Assembly (NCBI GenBank): GCA_934613415.1 | Contig: CAKTSY010000002.1 | Span: forward strand, 180,001 to 212,000 | Source of the DNA: an uncultured Opitutales bacterium | Lineage (GTDB): Bacteria > Verrucomicrobiota > Verrucomicrobiia > Opitutales > Intestinicryptomonadaceae | DNA length: 32,000 nt | Direction: 5' to 3' | Shown: positions 8,413 through 31,443 of the stretch, in pieces | How the letters are laid out: each line of letters opens with the position of its first letter | Numbering within the stretch: position 1 is the stretch's first letter | The notes under the pieces: generated by a model | The model's database searches: none | Told to the model about the DNA's origin: nothing | What the model saw: the letters and a program-made list of their open reading frames with translations, nothing else | Made by a program: the position numbers and the translations under genes

Positions 8413-9561
8413 ATGTTTAAGGCTTTTTTAATTGCGTTTTTGTTGGGCTTGCCGCTTGCTTTCGGCAATGCAAAACCCAATGCAAATCTAAAAAGCCCTT
8501 CGGTTTTGGAGAATACCCCAACGCAACAACTATACGACGCCCAAACAGCGTCGTTTATAGTTATATCAGACGCAACTATGGCAATAAACTACGTTTTGCC
8601 CATAGTGCGCGTTGCCGAAAATGCGGCGTACGAACTTTTCGGGTTTGGCGGCGATGCGGCATTGCCTAAAATTGTTTTGCAAATTGTTTCGCAGAACAAC
8701 GACAAGTTCGATTCGGGGGTGTCTGCTTCGTATAAAAGCGAAATACTGCTTAGCGCAAAGTTTAACGAAAAACTTTTGCTGGAAGATTTTTGCTCGCTCA
8801 TATCGAATGCCGTTTTGTATAGGGCGGCGCAAAGCTTTGGCTACGAGCCAAACAAAATTCCCCTTTGGCTTAAATTGGGCTTTGCAGAATATGTATATCA
8901 AAAAGCGTCTATAGGCGAGTTGGCGCAGCTTGTGCGTTATGCGCTTGAAAACAAAAAAATGCAGCCTAAAGAGCTTTTTGCGTTAAAAGAAGCCGACAAG
9001 TTCGACGCCGAAAACGCAAAGTGCAGTGCCTATTGGACACTTCTTACCATTCGCGACTTTTTAGACGACAAAGCCCTTGCAAAAAAGACAATGCTTTATG
9101 CTCTAAGCGGCAAAGACCCCGAAAATACCTTGCTTGCCTTTGAAAAGAACACAACAAAGGCAAATTTTAAAAAGCTGTGGCTTTGCGTATACAACCACGA
9201 AATCTATTCCAGAAAGGGCGGGGTTATGACTTTCGGCGAGTCGGCAGAATTTATCAAAAAAATGTGCTTTGTTTGCCCCGATTTCGAAAATGCGGGCTTT
9301 GCCGACAAGGCGGTGCTGCTAAACTGCGAAGACCCTAAAATGCAGGCAATGCTTAAACAGCGCATAACAGAAATAAAAATGGCGTTATCGTCTATAAACG
9401 GGGCCTATTTTAACACGCTGCTTTCGCTTGGCGAAATGTTCGAAGCCGCCCTAGATTCCGATTCCGAAAAATTTGAAGAGTCGCGCCGTGAATTTATAGA
9501 AAACTATAAGTACTCAAAGGTTGTGGAAAACGCCGCAAAAAAGCTTATGCAGGCAAAATAG
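8413..9561 (+). CDS. Hypothetical secreted protein
   Basis: 382-aa ORF with a signal peptide (MFKAFLIAFLLGLPLAFGNA). It runs in the same direction as purF, 7 nt downstream. I recognise no family. Confidence 0.6.
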   Translation: MFKAFLIAFLLGLPLAFGNAKPNANLKSPSVLENTPTQQLYDAQTASFIVISDATMAINYVLPIVRVAENAAYELFGFGGDAALPKIVLQIVSQNNDKFDSGVSASYKSEILLSAKFNEKLLLEDFCSLISNAVLYRAAQSFGYEPNKIPLWLKLGFAEYVYQKASIGELAQLVRYALENKKMQPKELFALKEADKFDAENAKCSAYWTLLTIRDFLDDKALAKKTMLYALSGKDPENTLLAFEKNTTKANFKKLWLCVYNHEIYSRKGGVMTFGESAEFIKKMCFVCPDFENAGFADKAVLLNCEDPKMQAMLKQRITEIKMALSSINGAYFNTLLSLGEMFEAALDSDSEKFEESRREFIENYKYSKVVENAAKKLMQAK

Positions 9562-9631
9562 CCTGCTTAACATACGTTATAAAAAGCCCTTGATAGTGCG
9601 CAACTAAAGTGTATAATTTGCGCCTTTAACT

Positions 9632-10552
9632 ATGACAAAAGAACGCATAAAAGGGCACATTTGCGTATTAACTGCAAATACAATTTTCGGGGTATTTATT
9701 CCCGTTTCAAAATATCTTATGGGCGGGCACATTTCGCCTATGACACTTACAATGTTCAGGGTGTTGGGGGCTGCCATGCTTTTTTGGACGGCGTCGCTTT
9801 TTGTTGAAAAGCAAAAAACCGACATAAAAACGCTGGCTTGGTTTTTCTTTTTTGCGCTTACGGGCGTTGTGCTAAATCAGGGGCTTTTTATTTTTGCATT
9901 GGGGCATACTTCGCCCATAGACGCCTCTGTAATATTAACTGCAACTCCGTTTGCGGCTTTGTTTATTTCGGCATTTTATTTAAAAGACCCCGTAACGGCG
10001 CGCAAGCTTTTGGGCATTGGCATTGGCGCAATAGGCGCGGTTTGGCTTATCACTACGGCGGCAGGCAAGGCTTCGGGCAACTCAAGCTCGGTTTTTGGCG
10101 ATTTAACCGTGCTATTTACTACAATGTGCGCTGCAACCTATTTTGTAACGTCTAAGCCCTATGCGAAAATATATTCGCCCATTACAATGATGAAATGGAT
10201 GTTCACATTTTCGGCAATTATGTTTGCTCCGTTTTTTATTGCCTATTGCCCGCAAGATGCCGAAAAGATTGCAAAGCTTGCCATTTGCGACTGGGCGGGC
10301 GTTTTGTATGTTGTAGTGGCAGCCACCTTTATTTCGTATCTGCTGCTGCCCATGGGCATTAAAAGAATGAGGCCTGCAACGGTTGCAATGTATATTTATG
10401 TGCAGCCAATAGTATCGTCGGTTGTGGCGGTAGTGGTAGGGCAGGATACGTTTTCGTGGGGCAAGCTTTTTGCGTCGGTTTTGGTATTTTTGGGCGTATA
10501 TATAGTTACAACTTCGCCGCAGACAAAAATTGTAGAACAAAACAAACAATAG
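9632..10552 (+). CDS. EamA/DMT-superfamily transporter
   Basis: 306 aa with about 10 hydrophobic segments in two similar halves. This is typical EamA-repeat architecture. Confidence 0.8.
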   Translation: MTKERIKGHICVLTANTIFGVFIPVSKYLMGGHISPMTLTMFRVLGAAMLFWTASLFVEKQKTDIKTLAWFFFFALTGVVLNQGLFIFALGHTSPIDASVILTATPFAALFISAFYLKDPVTARKLLGIGIGAIGAVWLITTAAGKASGNSSSVFGDLTVLFTTMCAATYFVTSKPYAKIYSPITMMKWMFTFSAIMFAPFFIAYCPQDAEKIAKLAICDWAGVLYVVVAATFISYLLLPMGIKRMRPATVAMYIYVQPIVSSVVAVVVGQDTFSWGKLFASVLVFLGVYIVTTSPQTKIVEQNKQ

Positions 10553-10591
10553 GGTGTCTTTTATATTTTACCGATATAAACAAAAACTTAT

Positions 10592-10978
10592 ATGAAAAAA
10601 TTTACCGCAATATTTTCGATTTTTGTTGCCTGCTTGCTGTTTTTGCCGGCGTGTGCCGGCAGCGCGCAACTGCAGCTAGACAACAACATAAGCTTTGCCA
10701 AATGCAAAAAGGGCGACACTGTAAAAATTACATTAGACGGCAATCCATCTACGGGCTACCAGTGGGATTTCGAAAATGAAGCCCCCTACATTGTAGAGCT
10801 TGAAAGCGAAAATTACGTTTCGCAAAACAACAACCTTATGGGGGCTCCCGCAAGGCAGGTCTTTGTATTTTCGGCAAGGAAAGCCGGTAAAAGCACAATT
10901 ACATTTAAGTATCGCCGCCCGTGGGAAAAGGCGCAAAAGCCGCTTTCGGAAATTGTATATACAATTATTGTAGAGTAG
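10592..10978 (+). CDS. Chagasin-family (I42) cysteine-peptidase inhibitor lipoprotein
   Basis: Lipobox-type signal (LLFLPACAGS). The chagasin signature loop GNPSTGYQWDF (NPTTGY.W motif) is present. The small beta-rich 128-aa size also fits. Confidence 0.75.
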   Translation: MKKFTAIFSIFVACLLFLPACAGSAQLQLDNNISFAKCKKGDTVKITLDGNPSTGYQWDFENEAPYIVELESENYVSQNNNLMGAPARQVFVFSARKAGKSTITFKYRRPWEKAQKPLSEIVYTIIVE

Positions 10979-21011: not shown

Positions 21012-21083
<72 letters not shown>

Positions 21084-21086
21084 CAT

Positions 21087-21163
21087 GGGGGTATAGCTCA
21101 GTTGGTTAGAGCACTTGCATGACACGCAAGGGGTCGCAGATTCGAGTTCCGCTACTCCCACCA
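21087..21163 (+). tRNA. tRNA-Val (anticodon GAC)
   Basis: Hand-folded cloverleaf. Acceptor GGGGGTA/TACTCCC, D arm GCTC-AGTTGGTTA-GAGC, perfect anticodon arm CTTGC-ATGACAC-GCAAG. CCA is encoded. The T stem (GCAGA/TCCGC) has one mismatch. Confidence 0.85.
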
Positions 21164-21181: not shown

Positions 21182-21210
21182 CTTCTAAACGCCCGTTTAG
21201 AAGTTTTTTT
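21182..21210 (+). terminator. Rho-independent terminator after the tRNA-Met/tRNA-Val pair
   Basis: 9-bp stem CTTCTAAAC/GTTTAGAAG with loop GCCC, followed by a 7-nt T-run. Confidence 0.75.
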
Positions 21211-21751
21211 GTTCTAGCCCCTCCGTACATAACGCAGTGCCAACCCTAACACGCCTTTTTGCGCAATATCCGTCTTTCTGTACAAATTGTAACGCTACAG
21301 GCGTATCTGGCTATCGTCTGCACACCCAAAGTCTTTAGTTGTTGTGCAGGTTTGTTGTAGGTTAGCCATTATTATTGCCGCAATATACAAAATTTAAGAA
21401 AGCAACAGTTTTAGCTTGGCGTGTCTAAAACAAAAGAGTCTTTAGATGAACCGTGTCTCTGGTAGCCCAAGAGGAAAATCCACTCGCCCCAGCACGACTT
21501 CACCCGAAGACTTTTAGACAGTCTTACATAAAAACTTTTCGGTCAAGAAAATTTATGCATATATTTTAGAAAAAACAAATAACTGCGTTTCTTTGAAAGA
21601 TATAGCGCAAGAAGCTGTTATAACATAATCTACAACTTTAAAAGTGTTTTTATCCGTCTATTAAAAAAGGTTGCATATTTGTATTTTGTAGCTAATGTTG
21701 CTGCAACAAAGTTTAACCGAGAGATATAAAAATTGTATAGGAGAAATAGGT

Positions 21752-22249
21752 ATGCAAAAAATGTATCTTGCAATTCTTGTACTTGTGCTTTGGCTTACAG
21801 GGTGCGGCAGTTTAGAAAAACCCGTTGTTAAAGAAAGGCAAACAGCCATTACAATAGAACAAATATATGATGCGTTTTTAGGAGGCTTGCAAAGCGTGCA
21901 GTTTCCCGATTCAAACAAGCTTGAACGTCGCATTGTTGGTGGCGTTTACAAAAATGGGCAAATAACGCAAATGCTGGTTGCCGATTTTAATTCACTGCCA
22001 ATTTCCCTATACGAAGCCACAAATAAATCTATTACAATTTCGAAAACAAAAGACGCCAAGCGCGAGTTTTTAACCTGCGCGCGTTCACAACCCGGCAATA
22101 CAGAAGTTGTTGGCATTATTTACAACGATGCAATAGAAAACTCTCTTAGTTCAAGAATTCTAAGCTGCGCGCACTACCCAGACGGCTCTACAATGTTTTT
22201 AGCCGTGGTACTCTCATTCGACATAAAAAATTCGACGAACAAAAAATAA
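21752..22249 (+). CDS. Small hypothetical lipoprotein
   Basis: The track ORF begins at 21695. The internal ATG at 21752 is preceded by AGGAGA and yields a classical lipoprotein signal MQKMYLAILVLVLWLTGCGS (lipobox LTGC). I recognise no family. Confidence 0.6.
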   Translation: MQKMYLAILVLVLWLTGCGSLEKPVVKERQTAITIEQIYDAFLGGLQSVQFPDSNKLERRIVGGVYKNGQITQMLVADFNSLPISLYEATNKSITISKTKDAKREFLTCARSQPGNTEVVGIIYNDAIENSLSSRILSCAHYPDGSTMFLAVVLSFDIKNSTNKK

Positions 22250-22504
22250 AAAATATGCAGTAGGTGGTATTTCTTCTTTTTTTCCGGCAAACGCATAAAA
22301 GGCAATAAAAAAAGCAAAAAACATTAAAAAATACATGGAAATTTTTAAATGGTTATTGGCTGAATTGTTGAAATTTAAAAAGGTTTTCTTGCCTATGATA
22401 AGAGAGTTTTCAAAGAAATAGGTTTTAGTTTATGTATATTTCTTTTACGAAGTTTGCGAATTTTGCTGAAGAGAATTTTACAATATAGATAGCACAAAAC
22501 GGAT

Positions 22505-23578
22505 ATGAATAAAGAATTTTTAATAAACAAATTGAAAGAATATTCGAAGCTTGAAACAAAAAATAAGCAGAAATTTAATGCCGAAGCTTTGGAACGTAAA
22601 TCCGCGATAGCCTTTTACCAAAACTATACAAGAGAGAAAATTCTGAGCCTTGACGCAGACGGCCTTTATGAGTTTTTTGCACCATTGTGGGCGTTGAAAA
22701 TGTGGGGAAATAGGCATACTAAAATAGATGCTCTAGTTGCAGACAATGAATTGGATAACTTAAAGGCTTTGCTTGCAGAATTGCTATACGGGAAAGATAA
22801 ATTAGAAAACCGTTGGGATTTTTTTAGGGAAAAAGTGAAAGGCGTTGGCCCTGCGATTATGAGCGAATTGCTATGCAAAATATATCCAAACGACAACATT
22901 ATATGGAACAGAAAAACGCACAATGCCTTTTTGCAGCTTGGAATAAATGATGTTCCAAAATACGAAAGCCGCTTAGATGGTAAGAAATACATTGCCTTTT
23001 GCAACGCAGCCAAACAAATATTAAAAGAGTCTACAAAAACAAGCATAAGCGATATGCTGCATCTCGATTATTTTATGTGGGAGATGTTTGACGACAATTT
23101 TTCGCAACAAAATGCGTCTATTTTGATAAAAAGAAGTTCTAAACTAGCAAGAACCGCAACAAAACCAGACTTTGACCACAACGATATTCGCGATAAGATA
23201 AGCGAAGTTGGCGCATTTTTGGGATTTAAGGCCAGCATAGAAAGAAAAGTTGCCGATGGCGCGATAGTTGACGCATTATGGGAAGCAACCATTGGCAATA
23301 TGGGGCGCGTAATTTATGTTTTTGAAGTTCAAACATCAGGTTCTATAGATAGTTTGATTCTAAATCTGATAAAAGCACATAGCAATAAAGCGGTGCAAGG
23401 TATCGTGGCTGTTAGCGACGCCATACAACTAGAAAAGATAAAAAAGGAAGTATCTAGTACTCCACTAAAAGACCATCTAAAATATTTAGACTATACAGAG
23501 CTCCTAAAAATCCACGAAGCCCTCCAATACGCAACCGAAAAAATAAACCAACTCGGCCTTGTTCCAGCTGGTTTTTAA
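22505..23578 (+). CDS. Hypothetical protein: HhH-like N-terminal domain + PD-(D/E)xK-like C-terminal domain (candidate nuclease)
   Basis: 357-aa ORF. The N-terminal half has a helix-hairpin-helix-like motif KVKGVGPAIMSELL (aa ~110-123). The C-terminal part has the ordered residues H225, E234, D256 and E274-V-Q276 (IVDALWEA ... VIYVFEVQTSG), a pattern resembling restriction-endonuclease-fold cores. The function is inferred; only the ORF itself is solid. Confidence 0.6.
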   Translation: MNKEFLINKLKEYSKLETKNKQKFNAEALERKSAIAFYQNYTREKILSLDADGLYEFFAPLWALKMWGNRHTKIDALVADNELDNLKALLAELLYGKDKLENRWDFFREKVKGVGPAIMSELLCKIYPNDNIIWNRKTHNAFLQLGINDVPKYESRLDGKKYIAFCNAAKQILKESTKTSISDMLHLDYFMWEMFDDNFSQQNASILIKRSSKLARTATKPDFDHNDIRDKISEVGAFLGFKASIERKVADGAIVDALWEATIGNMGRVIYVFEVQTSGSIDSLILNLIKAHSNKAVQGIVAVSDAIQLEKIKKEVSSTPLKDHLKYLDYTELLKIHEALQYATEKINQLGLVPAGF

Positions 23579-23581
23579 TTT

Positions 23582-26500
23582 TTACGAGTTTTCGCGATCT
23601 TCCATATCGTTATTGTCTGTCCACATTTCGCATTGGGCAATAACGGTATTTAGAGCTTCTTCCTGCCCTTCGGGCGGGTATTTATATTTTTTCAAAAGGC
23701 GTTTTACAAGAAGTCGCATACGGGCTCTTGCGTTTTGTCTTCTTTGCCAATCTATAGTTTTATTTTTCCGCAAAGCGTCTGTTAATTCCTTTGTGATAGC
23801 AACAAGTTCTTCGTTAGAATAAACATCTTTTACGGCTTGCGGCTTAGCTAAGGCATCGTAAAAAGCGACTTCTTCAGTTGATAGCCCCAAGGCATTCCCG
23901 TTTTCTTTTGCGCTTACAATTTCCTTTGCCATCTTTAATAGTTCCTCGATTACTTCCTCGTTTGAAAGCAATCCGTTAAGATAGGCATTCATTGTTCGTT
24001 GCAACAGTTCGGAAAATTTTTGAGACTTAACAACATTCGTTCTTTGATAAACCGAAACTTGTTCTGCTATCAATTTTTTCAACAATTCTACGGCAATGTT
24101 TTTTTGCTTTAATTTTGCAACCTCAGCTAAAAATTTAGGATCGAAAATCGAAAACTCTTCTTTTACATCTGAGAACAAATTTACAACACCTTCGCTTTTT
24201 ATGCTTTGGCGCAATAGTTCATTTATGCGTTTGTTGATTTCTTTTAAAGAAATGTAATGCGGTTTCGATGAAATGCGGGTCAACAATGTTCTCACTGCTT
24301 CAAAAAAGGCTGCCTCTAAACGGTCTTCTGGTTTTACAATGCTTCGACAAAGCGACAACGCCTGCCTTAGCAACATTGCTTCTTTTAAATAGTGCTCCTT
24401 CCTTTCAGGTTCTTGCGGATCCGAAAGAAAATTTACGCCATCCATTATTAACTGTGCTCGGTCGTAGTCAGATGCCGTTTTGAAATTGCTGTAATCAAAG
24501 CCGTGGAACAATTCCCTACAAACCGTTAATTTTTCAATGAAACGTGGCAGGGCTGCACTGCCTATATCCATATCGCCATATTTTTGCTTGTCGCGGTTTG
24601 TATAATCATTCATTGCCTGTTTTAAAGCCGAAGCAATACCGACATAGTCCACAATCAAACCGCCTTCTTTGTCTTGGAATACGCGATTTACGCGGGCGAT
24701 GGCCTGCATAAGATTGTGCCCAGCCATTGGTTTGTATACATACATTGTCGCAAGCGACGGCACATCAAACCCAGTAAGCCACATATCAACAACAATCGCA
24801 ATTTTTAAAAGCGAATTGTTGTCTTTAAACTTTCTGCCGAGTTCGTCTTTATATGCTTTGTTCCCGACAATAGGTTTCCAATCTTCTGGGTCGTTGTTTG
24901 CCGATGTCATAACAACGGCCAGCTTTTCAGTCCAGTTCGGTCGTATCGAGAGAATTTTGCGATATATCTTCATCGCAATTTCTCTTGAATAGGCAACAAT
25001 CATAGCCTTACCCGTAAGCAGCTTTTCGCGGTTTTCTTCGTAGTGCGAAACAATGTCGTTGCATAAGGCGTCTATGGTCTGTTCCGCGCCCAAAATACTT
25101 TCCATCTTGCTAAGCTCTTTTTTGCTTTTCTCGATGGAATAGGCTTCGGCAATTTCCGCCATTTTGTCGTATTCTTGGTCGATTTTGTCCATTACGGACT
25201 TGTCGAGCTTTAAGTGCACAACTCGGCTTTCGTAATATACCGGGCGCGTTGCGCCGTCTTCGACGGCCTGCGTCATGTCGTAAATATCTATATAATCGCC
25301 AAAAACTTCGCGCGTGTTCTTGTCTTTTGATGAAATAGGAGTTCCTGTAAATCCTATATATGTTGCATGGGGAAGACTTTTGCGTATTAAAATTTCTGTG
25401 CTTATTTTTACCGTTCCTGTTTTGGGGTCTATGCGTTCTATTTCATAGTGCCCGCGGTGGGCTTCGTCTGCCATAACAATGATATTTTTGCGTAGCGATA
25501 GCGGCTCAGCCGTTTCCGTGAACTTTTGCATTGTGGTAAAAATGATACCGTTTGCTTCGCGCCCAGCCAACAAATCAATTAGGTTTTCTCGGCTTTCCGC
25601 TTGAATGGGAATTTGCCTTAGGAAATCAGCACATCTCGAAAACTGCCCAAACAACTGGTTGTCTAAGTCGTTTCTGTCGGTTATTACAACAATGGTTGAA
25701 TTTTTTAAAGTTTGTTGTAGCAAGTTGGCATAAAAAACCATCGAGAACGATTTGCCGCTACCTTGCGTATGCCAAAATACGCCCGCCTTACCGTCGGAAT
25801 TTGTCGCCTTTATTGTAGATTCTATTGCCTTGTTTACCGCGAAATATTGGTGATACGCCGCAAATATTTTTACCTTTTCTTGCTTTTCATTAAAACAGCA
25901 GCAAATAAAATTTTTTATAATATCCAAAAATCTGTGCTTTTCGAATATCCCCATGAAAAAGGTGTTGTAGTCGGCAAATTTTGTGGTTTCGTAAGAGCCG
26001 TCCGAGGTCTTCCATTCCATGAAGCGATCTTCGCCGGCCGTTATTGTGCCTGCTTTTGTTTGCGCCATATCGCTCATCACGCAAAAGGCGTTGTATACAA
26101 ACAGCGATGGAATTTCCTGCATGTAGTTTCGCAGCTGTCTAAATGCCGCCGAAGCGTCCGTTTCTTCCCTTGATGGCGATTTCAACTCTACCACAACAAG
26201 TGGTATGCCGTTTACAAAAACAATAATGTCCGCTCTTTTTTCGGAACGTTCAACTATTGTCCATTGATTGGCTACAATAAAACTGTTCCTGTCTATGTTT
26301 GCGTAATCAACAAGATTTACTTTGTCGTATTTTTGTTCGCCATTAAGTATGTAGGCAACGTCAATTCCGTTTTGTAGATAGTCGGTAAAAATAGAGTTTT
26401 TCAAAATCAACTCTTGATTGTCTATATTTCGGATTTTATAAATGGCTTCGTCTATAGCTTCTGTCGGCAAATCAGGATTGATGGAACTAAGACAAGTTCT

Positions 26501-26626
26501 CAGCTCTTCGCCATACAAAGGGTCGGTATAATCTCTATCAATATCCGGACCATATACATGTTCATATCCCAATTTTTCAAAAAGTTGGATAATTGCATTT
26601 TCGTAATTTTCTTCTTTGTATGACAT
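23582..26626 (-). CDS. hsdR: Type I restriction enzyme, R (endonuclease/translocase) subunit
   Basis: 1014 aa. N-terminal PD-(D/E)xK nuclease block ADIIVFVNGIPLVVVELKSP. SF2 helicase motif I HTQGSGKS and motif II MADEAHRG (DEAH). The long helical C-terminal region is typical of HsdR. Confidence 0.95.
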   Translation of the reverse strand: MSYKEENYENAIIQLFEKLGYEHVYGPDIDRDYTDPLYGEELRTCLSSINPDLPTEAIDEAIYKIRNIDNQELILKNSIFTDYLQNGIDVAYILNGEQKYDKVNLVDYANIDRNSFIVANQWTIVERSEKRADIIVFVNGIPLVVVELKSPSREETDASAAFRQLRNYMQEIPSLFVYNAFCVMSDMAQTKAGTITAGEDRFMEWKTSDGSYETTKFADYNTFFMGIFEKHRFLDIIKNFICCCFNEKQEKVKIFAAYHQYFAVNKAIESTIKATNSDGKAGVFWHTQGSGKSFSMVFYANLLQQTLKNSTIVVITDRNDLDNQLFGQFSRCADFLRQIPIQAESRENLIDLLAGREANGIIFTTMQKFTETAEPLSLRKNIIVMADEAHRGHYEIERIDPKTGTVKISTEILIRKSLPHATYIGFTGTPISSKDKNTREVFGDYIDIYDMTQAVEDGATRPVYYESRVVHLKLDKSVMDKIDQEYDKMAEIAEAYSIEKSKKELSKMESILGAEQTIDALCNDIVSHYEENREKLLTGKAMIVAYSREIAMKIYRKILSIRPNWTEKLAVVMTSANNDPEDWKPIVGNKAYKDELGRKFKDNNSLLKIAIVVDMWLTGFDVPSLATMYVYKPMAGHNLMQAIARVNRVFQDKEGGLIVDYVGIASALKQAMNDYTNRDKQKYGDMDIGSAALPRFIEKLTVCRELFHGFDYSNFKTASDYDRAQLIMDGVNFLSDPQEPERKEHYLKEAMLLRQALSLCRSIVKPEDRLEAAFFEAVRTLLTRISSKPHYISLKEINKRINELLRQSIKSEGVVNLFSDVKEEFSIFDPKFLAEVAKLKQKNIAVELLKKLIAEQVSVYQRTNVVKSQKFSELLQRTMNAYLNGLLSNEEVIEELLKMAKEIVSAKENGNALGLSTEEVAFYDALAKPQAVKDVYSNEELVAITKELTDALRKNKTIDWQRRQNARARMRLLVKRLLKKYKYPPEGQEEALNTVIAQCEMWTDNNDMEDRENS

Positions 26627-26854
26627 GGCTTTACTCAGTAAATTTTTTTTCTAAGGCGTTTTGTAATATCAAAAATGAAAACAGAAAAGACAAACTTTAT
26701 CGATAAAATCTTTAAACATAGTTAACATTGATTCATGTAAATTGCAGTTTATACATTAAATAAAATCATCTAGTGCGCCAATTTTGATTAGATAACAATA
26801 TTTAATATACAAATGTATACATAATTTATATCCAAAACATATATCACAAAATTT
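26627..26854 (-). promoter_or_regulatory. AT-rich 228-nt spacer upstream of hsdR (probable independent hsdR promoter/operator region)
   Basis: No ORF, and very AT-rich. It separates the stop of the ATPase-Toprim gene from the hsdR start. It contains the 10-bp palindrome ATGTATACAT at 26813-26822. I can assign no confident -35/-10 pair. Confidence 0.3.
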
Positions 26855-28324
26855 TCATTTATTCAATTCTTCTATTATAAAATTCTTTATTTCAAGTAAT
26901 ATATTAGGGTTGAGTTTGATAAGTGACTTACAGCAATAATCTAGAATTCGAGTCTCACCCTCTTGACTTTCTTGTCCCATTGCATAAAAAATATTGTGAC
27001 AATCTGTTTCGCTTTTACCCTTTTCTATTAACCGCTGTGTTTCTATTTTATCAACAAGTAAAAATTCGGATAAAACTTGATAGCCATTTTCATTACTCAA
27101 CTCATTTATTATCCATCTTTCCGGAGGTACATTCCCCGGCAACTTCTTAAAGGGAACATCACCATTCTTTAATTTATAATTTTCAAAAGATTTATAAATC
27201 TCACTGTCACTAACATCTCCATCCCATATTACAACGAATTTTCTTCTATCACCATTTTTTTTATGATAAGTAACAGCTTTTAGTAATTCAGTCTTTGAAC
27301 CAATTTGCGCACAAATGACTCTCCCTTTTTCTTTCCCCAAAGCTGTTTTTATTAGTTCTGCAGCGACGATATCTTCACAATAAATTACCATCTCTTCGGT
27401 CTTTTTTATTGATATACGCGAAATCGCATAATTAGTCGTTGGATTATTTATCAATGTTATGTTATCCCCAGTCCGTTCAATAACAATCCTTGCCTCTCTG
27501 GGGAGAGCATCCAAAAAATCGCGAGAATGAGATGTAATAAAAATTTGCAATTGTTTTTTATTTGCTATGGTCTGAATTATTTCTGCCAAAATTGACAAAG
27601 CTTCAGGATGTAATCCCATTTCAATTTCATCTATAACAATAAGAGATTGCTGTTCCGCGTCTTGCAATATAGACAAGAGATAACAAATAATTCTTTCTCC
27701 GATCCCCATATTGTAACAAGAATATTGGCAATCCCCTATCTTACATTTCGAGAAGACATCTTGATAATTATCAACCTCGGAATATACACGTTTCATTATT
27801 CTTGTCGCATATCCCAAATATTCATCATTTAACTTAACAAAATCTTTGTCTTGTAATAGATCCGCTTGATTGTATCTCTTTTCATTGGCAGGTAGTGTCC
27901 TTGAAACTGGCAATAAAATGACTTTTTTATTCGGACGCCTATCATAATGCATCCATTTTTTGGGACCTTTGTGAACGGAAATATTCTTAGTTGGAATTTT
28001 TCCTTTATAGAACCAAGTTAAATCTATTCCTTCGTTTGATTGATCATATCTTGTTTTCTTAAAAAAATCGGAAAAAACTTTTCTATATTTTTTATCTTTA
28101 TTGTGAAAGGCCAATGCTGCTAATTGTAAAAATGTGGTTTTACCTGATCCATTTTTCCCACAAAAGACAGTTATTGGATACCTAAATTCGACGTTACAAT
28201 TTTTTAATCCTCTTATCGGAGCTCCATCATTAATTGAAATTCCTGTCAAGAATGGAATATCAGAATTAGAATTCCATAACTTCTTCAAGTCCTTTTCTAT
28301 ACAATTTAAATGATTGCCTGGCAT
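26855..28324 (-). CDS. ABC-type ATPase fused to a Toprim-like domain (OLD-family / PARIS AriA-AriB-like / RloA-RloB-like restriction-linked protein)
   Basis: 489 aa. Walker A FCGKNGSGKTT (aa 54-64), signature-like NMGIGER, Walker B SLIVIDEIEMGLHP (D232, E233), H-loop ITSHS. The C-terminal part has MVIYCEDIVAAELIK (E317), IGSK and FVVIWDGDV (D368, D370), which is an E...G.K...DxD Toprim pattern. AGGAG lies 8 nt upstream of the ATG, 50 nt downstream of hsdS. Confidence 0.8.
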   Translation of the reverse strand: MPGNHLNCIEKDLKKLWNSNSDIPFLTGISINDGAPIRGLKNCNVEFRYPITVFCGKNGSGKTTFLQLAALAFHNKDKKYRKVFSDFFKKTRYDQSNEGIDLTWFYKGKIPTKNISVHKGPKKWMHYDRRPNKKVILLPVSRTLPANEKRYNQADLLQDKDFVKLNDEYLGYATRIMKRVYSEVDNYQDVFSKCKIGDCQYSCYNMGIGERIICYLLSILQDAEQQSLIVIDEIEMGLHPEALSILAEIIQTIANKKQLQIFITSHSRDFLDALPREARIVIERTGDNITLINNPTTNYAISRISIKKTEEMVIYCEDIVAAELIKTALGKEKGRVICAQIGSKTELLKAVTYHKKNGDRRKFVVIWDGDVSDSEIYKSFENYKLKNGDVPFKKLPGNVPPERWIINELSNENGYQVLSEFLLVDKIETQRLIEKGKSETDCHNIFYAMGQESQEGETRILDYCCKSLIKLNPNILLEIKNFIIEELNK

Positions 28325-28374
28325 AATATACTCCTATTATTTCCTTAAGATGACAATATTGGCTAAACAATAAC

Positions 28375-29508
28375 TTATAATTCGATTTTCAAAACATCAA
28401 TCTCACCCGACATCAGCTTCGGAAGCAGCGTATCGCGAAGCTGCGACAATTTCAAAATCTCTAGTTTGTTTTCTGCTATTTTATTGTTTGCAGAGTTAAA
28501 AAAGTCGATAGGTGTAAATTTATCTAAATTTCGTGGTGCAAAAAATGAAAAATCTTCCAGATTTCCTTTTGTAATGAATTTTATTACAGAACCTCTTGCA
28601 CCAGAAGTTATCTTCTCCAAATTGTATTTAACCACATAATACAACCAATTTGTAAAAGTAGGATCGTGTGGGACAAGAACGTATGTTCTTTGATACGCTT
28701 CAAATTTTCCACTGTAGAACTTCACATTGAAATCCCCGTTGCCTGCAACAAGTATTGCATTTGCATCAAATGAAAATTCATCAGTCCATGCCGTATCTTG
28801 TGCGCAACTGAAAAAAGGATATTTCCCTTTTGAAGATGAAACATTTGCATTCTTTTTCCCAGTTATTACGGGTAGAAATTCTCCAAGTTTATATGCCTTC
28901 CAATCTGCAGGCATTTTGCCGTCGAACGGATCAAAATCAACAAACCAAGATTTGAAAATAGCCTGTGCTTGAGCTTCTAAATTTTGATTTATCTTCTCAT
29001 TAAGTTCAATCTTGTTGTCTAGCGAGCCTAAAACCGCAGAAATTTTCTTCTGTGTTTTCAGATCTGGTAAAAGAACTTCTATCCTTGAAAATGTCTCTCT
29101 TGTGATTGTGTCAAACACAGATCCATAAGAGTTTTTCTTTAGTATAGAAACAGAATGCTTTAGCAAGTAATAGATATAGTCATTAATTGCCAACTCATTC
29201 GCTCTTATGCCATAACAAGATTGGTTGAAAGCCATCGGTTTGGATAATTGAGCCAAAGCTCCAACAGTTCCACGTGCCGACAAAATGATATCATTTTCTC
29301 CTAACAAACGAGAACTACAATTATTTAATCCCTCTTGGGTTATTGTTTTTTCTGTTTTTGAAACGTAACGGTTATCGTTATTGAAATCTACAACAGACAA
29401 CCACGGAATTTCACCGCCCCAATACTCTTTTTTTGAGGTTTTTGGGGTTCCCCCTCCAATAATCTCAATACATTCAGAAATAGAGATTTTTTTACAATTC
29501 ATATCCAA
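28375..29508 (-). CDS. hsdS: Type I restriction-modification specificity subunit
   Basis: 377 aa with two target-recognition halves. These are separated by the conserved central helix (LEAQAQAIFKSWFVDFDPF) and end in the conserved C-terminal helix (LSQLRDTLLPKLMSGEIDV). The gene overlaps hsdM by 17 nt. Confidence 0.92.
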   Translation of the reverse strand: MDMNCKKISISECIEIIGGGTPKTSKKEYWGGEIPWLSVVDFNNDNRYVSKTEKTITQEGLNNCSSRLLGENDIILSARGTVGALAQLSKPMAFNQSCYGIRANELAINDYIYYLLKHSVSILKKNSYGSVFDTITRETFSRIEVLLPDLKTQKKISAVLGSLDNKIELNEKINQNLEAQAQAIFKSWFVDFDPFDGKMPADWKAYKLGEFLPVITGKKNANVSSSKGKYPFFSCAQDTAWTDEFSFDANAILVAGNGDFNVKFYSGKFEAYQRTYVLVPHDPTFTNWLYYVVKYNLEKITSGARGSVIKFITKGNLEDFSFFAPRNLDKFTPIDFFNSANNKIAENKLEILKLSQLRDTLLPKLMSGEIDVLKIEL

Positions 29509-31072
29509 TACCTTTCAGTTGCTTGCGGATTTCTGCTTCGAGGGTGTGTGATTGTTCGAAGAGGTCGGAAAGTTCAGATGTCAGGCGTTTCATTTTGTCG
29601 TCGAAAGGTTCGCCGTCGTCTTCTTTTTCTTCTATGCCAACATATCGACCAGGGGTGAGTATATAGCCTTGCTTGGCGATTTCTTCGGTGGAGACTACTG
29701 CACAAAAGCCTTTTTTATTTTCGAGTGTTCCGTTTTCGTATTTGTCGTAGGTATCGCCAAGTTTTGTTATGTCGGCATCGGTCAGCTCTCGCAATTTACG
29801 CGATTTCATTGTTCCCATGTTTCGGGCGTCTATGAACAAGGTTTTGCCTTTTTGATTCTTATTCTTGCTTAAAAACCAAAGCGAAACGGGAATTTGCGTT
29901 GTATAGAACAGTTGGGGCGGCATTGCAATTATACAAGAAACGAGATCTGCCTCTATTATATTCTTTCTGATTTCGCCTTCGCCGCTTGTTTGGGAAGAAA
30001 GCGAACCGTTTGCAAGAACCATTCCGATTTTCCCGAAAGACGGCTCCATATGAAAAATCATATGCTGTAGCCATGCAAAGTTTGCGTTGCCTTCTGGCGG
30101 AATGCCAAAACACCAGCGTTTGTCGTTTTTCAACTTATCTCCGCCCCAATCCGACATATTAAACGGCGGATTCGCCATAATGTAGTCGAATTTTTCGGTC
30201 GGGAAACGGTCGTTCATGAAGGTGTCTGCGTTATAATCGCCGAGGTTTGCCTCTATGCCGCGAATTGCCAAATTCATCTGCGCCATCTTCCAAGTAGTCG
30301 GGTTCGATTCCTGACCGAAAACCGAAATATTATTTATGTTTCCTTTGTGGTCTTCAACAAACCTTGCAGACTGAACAAACATTCCGCCAGAACCGCAAGC
30401 AGGGTCGTAAACCCTAATACCGCGAGTTCCGCGCCTTGCGCTGCTTAGCGGTTTTAAGATTTCGACAATCGTTTTCACCACGCACGGAGGTGTATAGAAT
30501 TCCCCTGCCTTTTTTCCCTCGTTTTCGGCAAACTGAGCCAAACAATATTCGTAGGCACGCCCCAAAATATCGCGGGAATCACCATGGACACTCATTTTAA
30601 CATTGGTAAAGAGGTCTATAACTTCGCCAAGCCTGCGTTTGTCAAGTTCTGGGCGAGCAAATCCCTTTGGAAGAATATTTTTTAGGCGCGGATTTTCCTT
30701 TTCGATTAGTTCCATCGCCTTATCGATAACCTTCCCAATTTCGGAGGTATGGGCTGCATACGAAATAGCTTCCCAACGCGCCTGCTGGGGTACAAAGAAG
30801 ATTCCTTCGGCATCGTAGGCATCTCTGTCTTCTTCAAAGCCTTCGCCTTCGTTTTTTAGTTCGTTATATTTTTCTTCAAATTTGTCCGAAATGTATTTTA
30901 GAAAAATCAGCCCCAAAACAATATTTTTGTATTCCGAAGCGTCCATATTGCCGCGAAGCTTGTCGGCCGCGCTCCAGATTTCCTTTTCAAAACCTACATT
31001 AGCTGTATTTATGTCGTCCATATTATTTTTACAATCCAGTCTTAAAATAGGCAAAAAATCAGAATTCATCAA
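29492..31072 (-). CDS. hsdM: Type I restriction-modification N6-adenine DNA methyltransferase subunit
   Basis: HsdM N-terminal block FEKEIWSAADKLRGNMD. AdoMet motif I VYDPACGSGGMF and catalytic motif IV IMANPPFN. The real start may be the internal ATG at 31021 (MDDINTANVGFEKEIW). Confidence 0.95.
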   Translation of the reverse strand: MMNSDFLPILRLDCKNNMDDINTANVGFEKEIWSAADKLRGNMDASEYKNIVLGLIFLKYISDKFEEKYNELKNEGEGFEEDRDAYDAEGIFFVPQQARWEAISYAAHTSEIGKVIDKAMELIEKENPRLKNILPKGFARPELDKRRLGEVIDLFTNVKMSVHGDSRDILGRAYEYCLAQFAENEGKKAGEFYTPPCVVKTIVEILKPLSSARRGTRGIRVYDPACGSGGMFVQSARFVEDHKGNINNISVFGQESNPTTWKMAQMNLAIRGIEANLGDYNADTFMNDRFPTEKFDYIMANPPFNMSDWGGDKLKNDKRWCFGIPPEGNANFAWLQHMIFHMEPSFGKIGMVLANGSLSSQTSGEGEIRKNIIEADLVSCIIAMPPQLFYTTQIPVSLWFLSKNKNQKGKTLFIDARNMGTMKSRKLRELTDADITKLGDTYDKYENGTLENKKGFCAVVSTEEIAKQGYILTPGRYVGIEEKEDDGEPFDDKMKRLTSELSDLFEQSHTLEAEIRKQLKGIGYEL

Positions 31073-31443
31073 GTCCTATTTACGGAACTAGAATGGAAGA
31101 AGTAGAAACAAATCTAGATGAGGCCTATTTAAACGAGTTTTTACGCATTTTATCTAAAATATCGTATTACTCTTGTTTTCCATTTGAAGCGTGGAAAATT
31201 CTATAATCATTAACTTACTAGCTTAAAACTTGATATAAATCTTGTGTGAGCAAAACATGAGTCGTTTCCCAATAATATCTTATTGTATAAATGCCCGAAA
31301 ATGTGCTGCTTTATTGGGGGTTGTTTGTCTGCCATAGTGTGGTTTAAGAAATATATAACTAGACAAAAATCACTAATATATGCCAATATTCTAATTATGA
31401 TTGACTTTATAGCTAAGCTATGGTCTCATTACAGCTTTATCCG

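Follow-up and report, generated by a model that had tools for sequence, protein, structure and literature searches.

A type I restriction–modification operon of an uncultured Opitutales bacterium carries, between hsdS and hsdR, an ABC-ATPase/Toprim-like fusion gene of the HEC-04/IbfA anti-phage family

The analyzed stretch, hereinafter the window, comprises 32,000 nucleotides (nt) of contig CAKTSY010000002.1 (positions 180,001 to 212,000) of an uncultured Opitutales bacterium and carries on its minus strand a type I restriction–modification (R-M) operon, in which a gene designated here as X, encoding an ATP-binding cassette (ABC) ATPase fused to a Toprim-like domain, is placed between the genes of the specificity and restriction subunits. 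The assignment of the host to the Opitutales (Verrucomicrobiota) also follows from housekeeping proteins that match, exactly or with at least 90% identity, proteins recorded under this name. The order hsdM (31072–29492), hsdS (29508–28375), X (28324–26855), and hsdR (26626–23582) was confirmed by open reading frames (ORFs) and Pfam domains; it had been proposed in an earlier reading of the sequence alone (hereinafter, the original prediction), which did not mention the strand. The product of hsdM, the methyltransferase subunit, matched N6_Mtase (E-value = 1e-107) and HsdM_N (2e-28), with an NPPF motif readable in the translation; the true start of this gene is probably an internal ATG rather than the listed TTG. 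The last 17 nt of hsdM are shared with hsdS, which encodes a specificity subunit with two target-recognition domains (Methylase_S, 1e-40, two stretches), whereas hsdR encodes an apparently intact restriction/translocase subunit (HSDR_N, SWI2_SNF2/ResIII, T1R_D3-like, and T1RH-like_C, with a DEAH box and a D...ELK nuclease motif in the translation). All three Hsd subunits thus have full Pfam domain sets, and the operon is intact. The hsdS–X spacer (28325–28374, minus strand) is exactly 50 nt long and bears AGGAG at 28331–28335, 6 nt 5' of the ATG of X, both as originally predicted; no terminator-like site was found in it on the minus strand. The X–hsdR spacer (26627–26854, minus strand) is 228 nt long with 22% GC (0.224), a length peculiar to this genome, since in the relatives this junction ranges from a 4-nt overlap to 92 nt. 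The original prediction made no mention of it. A decayed gene (e.g., DUF3800) was looked for in this spacer and no remnant was found, and the Rfam scan returned only tRNAs and nothing in the spacer, which may be a separate promoter region of hsdR. The promoter and terminator scan of the operon was uninformative (26 promoter-like sites versus 26 expected by chance).

The X ORF (26855–28324, minus strand, ATG start) encodes a protein of 489 amino acids (aa) in which three parts were distinguished. The ABC-type ATPase domain (residues 1–295, 27440–28324) was matched by Pfam AAA_15 (5e-23) and AAA_21 (9e-20), which cover residues 38–270, and by profiles of the ATPases of PtuA, TsOLD, AriA, and Rad50 from the PDB; SMC was also among the ABC-type matches obtained from the PDB. 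It contains Walker A GKNGSGKT (residues 56–63, 28136–28159, with the K62 codon at 28139–28141), the signature-like loop GIGER (residues 207–211), Walker B LIVIDEIE (residues 228–235, 27620–27643), and the H-loop TSHS (residues 264–267, containing H266). The Toprim-like α/β core (residues 312–400, 27125–27391) contains VIYCED, ending at E317-D318 (E317 at 27374–27376), IGSK (residues 341–344, including G342), and VIWDGD, ending at D368-G369-D370 (27215–27223). The C-terminal helical bundle (residues 401–489, 26858–27124) opens with the invariant P401-E402 and consists of six helices with a predicted local distance difference test score (pLDDT) > 90. In the family alignment of 40 sequences (24–67% identity), residues G56, N58, G61, K62, G209, E210, E233, E235, H239, H266, and S267 of the ATPase and E317, D318, G342, D368, G369, D370, P401, and E402 of the C-terminal part were invariant; this motif conservation is far beyond chance. 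The original reading, in which a compact ABC-type ATPase and a C-terminal E...G...DxD domain are joined in one chain that lacks a partner gene, was therefore upheld: all listed motifs lie where they had been placed, their key residues are invariant in the 40 sequences, and the residue numbers of the mutants that had been proposed (K62, E317, and D368/D370) are correct.

According to PADLOC, X belongs to HEC-04 (E-value = 3.1e-45, residues 36–453 on model positions 34–454 of 494). HEC-04 (Hma-embedded candidate 04, PADLOC PDLC04149) is a single-protein ABC-ATPase/TOPRIM defense whose family definition derives from Hma systems (Payne, Hughes, Fineran & Jackson, bioRxiv 10.1101/2024.01.29.577857). 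X was 26% identical over residues 37–400 (E-value = 4e-25) to the tested HEC-04 protein (WP_044502283.1, sequence taken from the supplement of Payne et al.), which is named ‘ATP-dependent nuclease’ in RefSeq, and K62, E317, D368, and D370 of X aligned with K62, E319, D375, and D377 of HEC-04. Comparison of X with IbfA gave 27% identity, colinear across residues 26–466; the E, G, DGD, and PE motifs are conserved in both. Among the PHROGs, X matched full-length phrog_3940 of unknown function (E-value = 1e-55), whereas nothing above cut-offs was obtained for X in NCBIfam. In an exhaustive HMMER search, 144 of 1.84 billion cluster representatives reached E ≤ 1e-30 and 688 reached E ≤ 1e-10, a separate database search gave 56 homologs of X, relatives were found on 744 plasmids, and a scan of metagenome contigs gave only five weak loci; the HEC-04/IbfA family is genuine but fairly rare. 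By its sequence, X is a member of this known anti-phage family and not the poorly described system variant that it had been taken for, since PADLOC assigns it to HEC-04 and a tested homolog has been published. It should be noted that PADLOC would label X as HEC-04 automatically, so that spotting X is no discovery in itself.

Published work covers the function of both relatives. In the R-M-free host Escherichia coli MG1655 ΔRM, HEC-04 reduced plaquing of T4, T5, and other coliphages, was inactive as K62A or as E319A/D375A/D377A, and was apparently toxic upon induction with isopropyl β-D-thiogalactopyranoside (bioRxiv 10.1101/2024.01.29.577857). Since the residues of X align with those mutated in HEC-04, the Walker A K62A and E/DxD mutants and the phage challenge suggested for X have already been made on a homolog. 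The ibfA gene of IncI plasmids (R64, pUA1135) is a long-known phage-interference factor for which an abortive-infection-like phenotype was recently shown (PMC12111858). The tight linkage of X with the operon, the apparent toxicity of induced HEC-04, and the speculation of the IbfA authors on non-defense roles (PMC12111858) would suit a protein that is no immune effector and instead modulates the type I enzyme as an accessory subunit or stabilizes the operon as a selfish addiction module; however, such a role is highly improbable, given that both tested relatives are defense factors, that other relatives lie in defense islands, prophage hotspots, and plasmids, that the nuclease and ATPase residues are invariant, and that no antitoxin-like partner is present. 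X is more plausibly, and in our assessment probably, an autonomous single-polypeptide OLD-like ABC-ATPase/Toprim anti-phage nuclease carried as a second layer of defense in an R-M operon. Its membership in the family, its conserved ATP- and metal-binding residues, and its embedded position are the observed elements of this reading.

The C-terminal part of X had been read in the original prediction as a Toprim nuclease core, and Toprim-type domain families had been named by which it might be recognized; X matched the AAA_15, AAA_21, and HEC-04 profiles, whereas DUF4435, RloB, and OLD-like_TOPRIM gave no match. The AlphaFold2 model of X, built with the 40-sequence alignment, had a pLDDT of 90.9 and a predicted template modeling score of 0.80. 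In a Foldseek search of the PDB with this model, the top match was the Thermus scotoductus Class 1 OLD protein 6p74, over the full length (E-value = 1e-11, 569 aligned columns), followed by PtuA and GajA, with TM-scores of just about 0.35. A structural match to an OLD nuclease was obtained for the full-length model, whereas the isolated C-terminal model had no significant Foldseek match. When modeled alone, residues 296–489 (pLDDT = 94.6) formed four strands alternating with helices, followed by the six-helix bundle, and in the models strands 312–316, 336–340, and 362–367 directly precede E317, G342, and D368-G-D370, respectively. The Toprim fold, as reportedly defined by Aravind in 1998, has an α/β core in which strand 1 is followed by a conserved E and strand 3 by DxD, and in the predicted structures the placement of E/G/DxD after strands 1–3 is the canonical Toprim arrangement. 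The HEC-04 profile matched the C-terminal domain of X alone (E-value = 5.5e-6), as it did in 22 of the 26 family members, and the PADLOC model of the retron type I-B ATPase-Toprim (OLD) protein matched this domain alone in four of the 26 (best E-value = 7.6e-6) and aligned along the entire C-terminus of family member L025. The Toprim of HEC-04 itself is backed by published structural superposition and mutagenesis (bioRxiv 10.1101/2024.01.29.577857). Based on the layout of motifs and strands, the PADLOC cross-matches, and the published HEC-04 work, the C-terminal domain of X is very probably a Toprim.

Several results weigh against reading X as an autonomous ABC-ATPase/Toprim nuclease. X is just 26–27% identical to the two tested relatives, HEC-04 and IbfA, and embedding after hsdS in at least three lineages with tight junctions would also fit functional coupling to R-M. 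In Pfam, nothing was matched by residues 290–489 of X, and no significant match was obtained for the 26 C-terminal domains or for those of HEC-04, IbfA, L021, L024, and L025; OLD-like_TOPRIM (PF20469) was reached by one of the 26 domains (E-value = 0.073). Neither a profile of the C-terminal alignment searched against PDB sequences (no relevant match) nor a phmmer search of the PDB with the bridging member L025, which matched ATPases only, revealed a Toprim. In Foldseek, the isolated C-terminal model had a best E-value of 0.045 against the PDB, with AriB (8ux9_A) at rank 13 (E-value = 0.25), and no match below 1e-3 against BFVD, where only DnaG TOPRIM appeared below the threshold of significance. 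In hhalign, the C-terminal alignment reached probabilities of just 0.3% with P2 Old, 1.6% with a small DUF4276 alignment, and 19% with a DUF4435 protein, although the motifs were in register, and in the comparison of the X family with P2 Old only the ATPase was detected. The Toprim domain of the HEC-04/IbfA family is thus invisible to Pfam and to Foldseek applied to the isolated domain, and because of the former, Pfam-based annotation names such proteins merely AAA family ATPases.

The genomic context of the family was assessed on a tree of 60-odd members labelled by gene neighborhood (neighbor joining with bootstrap). Members at least 41% identical to X formed the X clade (bootstrap 100/100). 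Genomic context is known for eight of them, and seven of these sit between hsdS and hsdR, one of the seven with a DUF3800 gene in between; the gap to hsdS is 3–50 nt, and that to hsdR is 3–92 nt in the relatives but 228 nt in the window. The remaining member, P0019/L056, lacks hsd genes in its neighborhood. In the hsdM–hsdS slot of the X-clade operons, the cargo is varied and includes RhuM/Fic, a PARIS-like AAA_15 + DUF4435 pair, PIN_12, and HEPN/MNT-like pairs. Two further groups also follow hsdS, namely, the P0023 lineage (36% identity to X), in which the stop overlaps the hsdR start, and the basal group L021/L024/L025 (PADLOC HEC-04, 1e-30 to 1e-35), in which the L025 gene overlaps hsdR by 4 nt; the HsdR proteins of these lineages are about 31–37% identical to that of the window (only ~31% for L024 and L025). 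At L024, a 425-aa protein (9545–10822), for which PADLOC gave weak matches to PDC-S20, PifA, and QatA, is encoded between the HEC-04-like gene and hsdR. At L035 (3684–6732; also L036), RhuM/Fic and the PARIS-like AAA_15 + DUF4435 pair lie between hsdM and hsdS and the X homolog between hsdS and hsdR; therefore, two ABC-ATPase/Toprim-type systems are present in one R-M operon. In the related operons at L039 (6089–7984) and L050 (2139–4105), the called HsdS includes a fused NTP_transf_2 nucleotidyltransferase domain, and an NTase_sub_bind gene comes before it; this arrangement looks like a HEPN/MNT-like toxin–antitoxin pair that is embedded where hsdS begins or is fused to it there.

Outside these lineages, hsd genes were sought by tblastn with the window Hsd proteins (E-value 1e-5, flanks up to 10 kb), and 19 genome loci of relatives had none in the searched flanks. 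Some free-standing relatives adjoin housekeeping genes such as RNR, AlaRS, and GyrB; others adjoin TIR, Schlafen-helicase, or AAA_15 + DUF4276 genes. At L003 (1482–6051), L004 (7249–11575), and L005 (7246–11593), with ~30% identity, an upstream gene of 920–1013 aa encoding a UvrD helicase with PD-(D/E)XK nuclease overlaps the start of the X-like gene, which suggests a Gabija-like system of two genes in which, however, the helicase gene lies upstream and encodes a helicase–nuclease fusion. The family gene also occurs on four viral contigs, at a distance of a few kb from a P2-type gpA. In E. coli strain 789 (NZ_CP010315.1), the tested HEC-04 gene (L059, 9001–10473) is flanked within a P2-like prophage by the genes of the replication endonuclease gpA and the portal protein, a position that is the classic old/tin hotspot of phage P2. 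At L052 (1709–10885) and L045 (9792–11672), free-standing relatives were observed in islands with one to three more AAA_15 ATPase genes, some followed by DUF4276 (HEC-01-like) and interleaved with ATP-grasp genes, and contigs L045–L047 carry topoisomerase VI genes. The expected residence of homologs in hsd operons thus holds for the X clade (7/8), whereas most other relatives are free-standing, paired with a helicase, or borne on prophages or plasmids.

This distribution bears on whether X could be a guardian of the operon, as the original prediction had proposed. In the form considered here, X would be kept latent through physical association with HsdM/S/R and freed when an anti-restriction protein of the Ocr/ArdA/Stp type disables the enzyme, whereupon its Toprim would cut tRNA or DNA. 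X does occupy the position of prrC, between hsdS and hsdR, and this slot is kept in seven of the eight clade members although their HsdR proteins are just 39–97% identical, while the cargo of the hsdM–hsdS slot varies. The P0023 and L021/L024/L025 lineages add two further cases after hsdS, and junctions of 3–20 nt or overlapping ones suggest co-translation with hsdR; moreover, PARIS, PrrC, and Gabija are reported to be triggered by anti-restriction proteins. Nevertheless, the slot alone is weak evidence for a guardian because unrelated defense genes are commonly embedded in type I R-M; embedding of many such genes is described as common, and 96.7% of embedded genes share the orientation of the flanking system. 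No count of HEC-04 within type I R-M was found in the supplements of Payne et al. In addition, the tested HEC-04 was active in an R-M-free host and sits in a prophage hotspot, IbfA is active from a plasmid, most relatives are free-standing, hsd genes are absent around the clade member P0019/L056, and X has been swapped between hsd backbones, as considered below. Latency of X imposed by the Hsd subunits is therefore regarded as possible but doubtful. The idea of a backup defense for embedded ABC-ATPase systems was already raised by Payne et al. (bioRxiv 10.1101/2024.01.29.577857). A broader proposal, in which the hsd-embedded clade would be a Toprim-based analogue of PrrC, its diversification with hsdS would track phage counter-measures, and the post-hsdS slot would be a general docking site for ABC-ATPase guards, is quite doubtful.

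Comparative analysis of the related operons indicated cassette-like evolution of X. The divergence of X is loosely in step with that of HsdR (r = 0.86), but individual pairs conflict: between the window and the closest related operon, L001, identity was 89% for HsdM, 81% for HsdR, and 59% for X, and the window X is nearer (66%) to the X of L035/L037, though their HsdM and HsdR are just 65–67% identical to those of the window. Between L035 and L037, the values were 99% for HsdM, 97% for HsdR, 78% for X, and 73% for HsdS; the window HsdS is just 31–44% identical to the HsdS of related operons. DNA identity between the window and L001 was high in hsdM, collapsed from the hsdM 3' end through hsdS, was 54–70% in X and 36–38% in the X–hsdR spacer, and recovered in hsdR. 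The GC content of X was 32% (0.26 at third codon positions), compared with 44% for hsdM, 41% for hsdR, and 44% for the remainder of the window, and the clusters at 90% identity contained three sequences for X and 192 for HsdR. According to the identity conflicts, the DNA profile, the GC content, and the cluster sizes, it was concluded that X, like hsdS, belongs to a variable middle that is exchanged while the hsdM and hsdR arms on either side stay conserved. The discordance of X with HsdM and HsdR speaks against close co-adaptation of an interface between X and these two subunits. DNA homology between the window and L001 ends at both operon ends; thus, the operon is a mobile unit found in differing genomic contexts. 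In the window, a lower-GC segment (21200–31200) carrying the hsd operon is bordered by a tRNA-Met/tRNA-Val pair (21012–21163, plus strand), and no integrase is visible inside the window. Within this low-GC island, a 357-aa ORF (22505–23578, plus strand) is convergent with hsdR, their 3' ends being 4 nt apart; it had no match in Pfam, PADLOC, NCBIfam, or PHROGs and could be an unrecognized defense gene or island cargo.

In the reading of X as an autonomous nuclease, the N-terminal ABC ATPase (Walker A K62, Walker B E233, H-loop H266) would serve, by analogy with relatives, as a nucleotide-dependent switch or sensor, and the C-terminal Toprim-like domain (E317, D368, D370, and probably E402) would be a metal-dependent nuclease. 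Upon sensing of a phage cue, the nuclease would presumably cut tRNA or DNA, leading to growth arrest or abortive infection, as in related systems: P2 Old and AriB cleave tRNA, and other OLD enzymes nick or degrade DNA. X is most likely autonomous, the Hsd proteins not being needed, because the tested relatives work without R-M and relatives are free-standing or occur in defense islands, in P2-like prophages, and on plasmids. X is probably co-transcribed with hsdMS, would be passed on jointly with hsdS and swapped along with it through recombination in the conserved hsdM and hsdR arms, and would act as a second defense layer beside restriction.

Alternatively, X, while autonomous, could be a direct sensor of the PARIS type, in which the ATPase or the C-terminal bundle binds phage anti-restriction DNA mimics and the placement in R-M reflects selection for matched defenses, with no Hsd contact. 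The ATPase part of X does match AriA models and structures, and the PARIS-like AAA_15 + DUF4435 pair in the other slot of a related operon would indicate that such systems are selected here. Within the X clade, the ATPase core changes most slowly (70–75% identity), the Toprim periphery retains 44%, and the C-terminal bundle is the fastest (37%); the rapid divergence of this bundle and of the insert 134–200 is as for an arms-race surface. However, the AriB/DUF4435 matches were not significant, most relatives are not beside R-M, and the tested HEC-04, according to PMC12111858, protects against T4 and T5 and not against T7, the classic carrier of Ocr; direct sensing of this kind is therefore considered improbable. 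What is new here is a clade almost fixed in the hsdS–hsdR slot, at least two other lineages in the same slot, and cassette-like evolution alongside hsdS. The embedded clade offers a cheap and concrete test of whether ABC-ATPase nucleases are coupled to the host R-M, as PrrC is, or are passengers, for which L035 and L037, nearly identical in HsdM and HsdR and divergent in X, constitute a natural pair.

X was also compared with known ATPase–nuclease systems. In Class 1 OLD proteins (P2 Old; TsOLD 6p74), as in X, an ABC ATPase is followed by a Toprim nuclease in one chain, the systems consist of a single gene, and the ATPase is detectable by profile. In contrast, X is ~40 residues shorter than TsOLD (489 versus 528) and ~100 shorter than P2 Old (586), and no long helical dimerization insert is evident in its modeled ATPase, where only short helices (148–156 and 167–177) and strands lie between Walker A and the signature loop. 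Class 1 OLD genes have no conserved neighbors, whereas the X clade has conserved hsdS and hsdR neighbors; a canonical OLD identity was rejected on account of these neighbors and the missing match to Pfam OLD-like_TOPRIM. Gabija was rejected because, other than HsdR, no GajB-like UvrD/PcrA/Rep helicase lies beside X and GajA models match only the ATPase segment 220–293. In PARIS (AriA ABC ATPase and AriB DUF4435 Toprim), an ABC ATPase is likewise joined with a Toprim-type effector, and the ATPase part of X matched AriA in PADLOC models (1e-19) and structures (1e-12), the AriA/AriAB models covering only ~204–275; however, PARIS is formed by two proteins in a large complex, whereas X is one fused chain, and PARIS was rejected for this reason and for the lack of a DUF4435 match (AriB 8ux9_A and hhalign values given above).

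PrrC of the E. coli prr locus shares with X the slot in the order hsdM–hsdS–gene–hsdR and an N-terminal ABC-type NTPase. It differs in its C-terminal anticodon-nuclease domain, as opposed to the α/β Toprim-like core and helical bundle of X, and its latency is exerted through EcoprrI; PrrC was rejected because of the different effector domain and because no PrrC model was among the 25 best PADLOC matches. The RloA/RloB pair of Campylobacter hsd loci was rejected since X is a single gene and no RloB match was found in Pfam for X or the 26 C-terminal domains. IbfA has the same two-domain layout as X but is plasmid-borne beside a ProQ/FinO gene, outside an R-M operon, and groups in the tree with the tested HEC-04, apart from X. 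The tested HEC-04, in turn, belongs to a different, well-supported clade and to a P2-like prophage hotspot, whereas X occupies the hsdS–hsdR slot in a metagenome-assembled genome of Opitutales. The two also share several features: each is one protein of ~490 aa whose N-terminal ABC ATPase has the Walker A lysine at position 62, the E/DxD residues agree residue for residue, and HEC-04, like X, is also found embedded in other defense systems.

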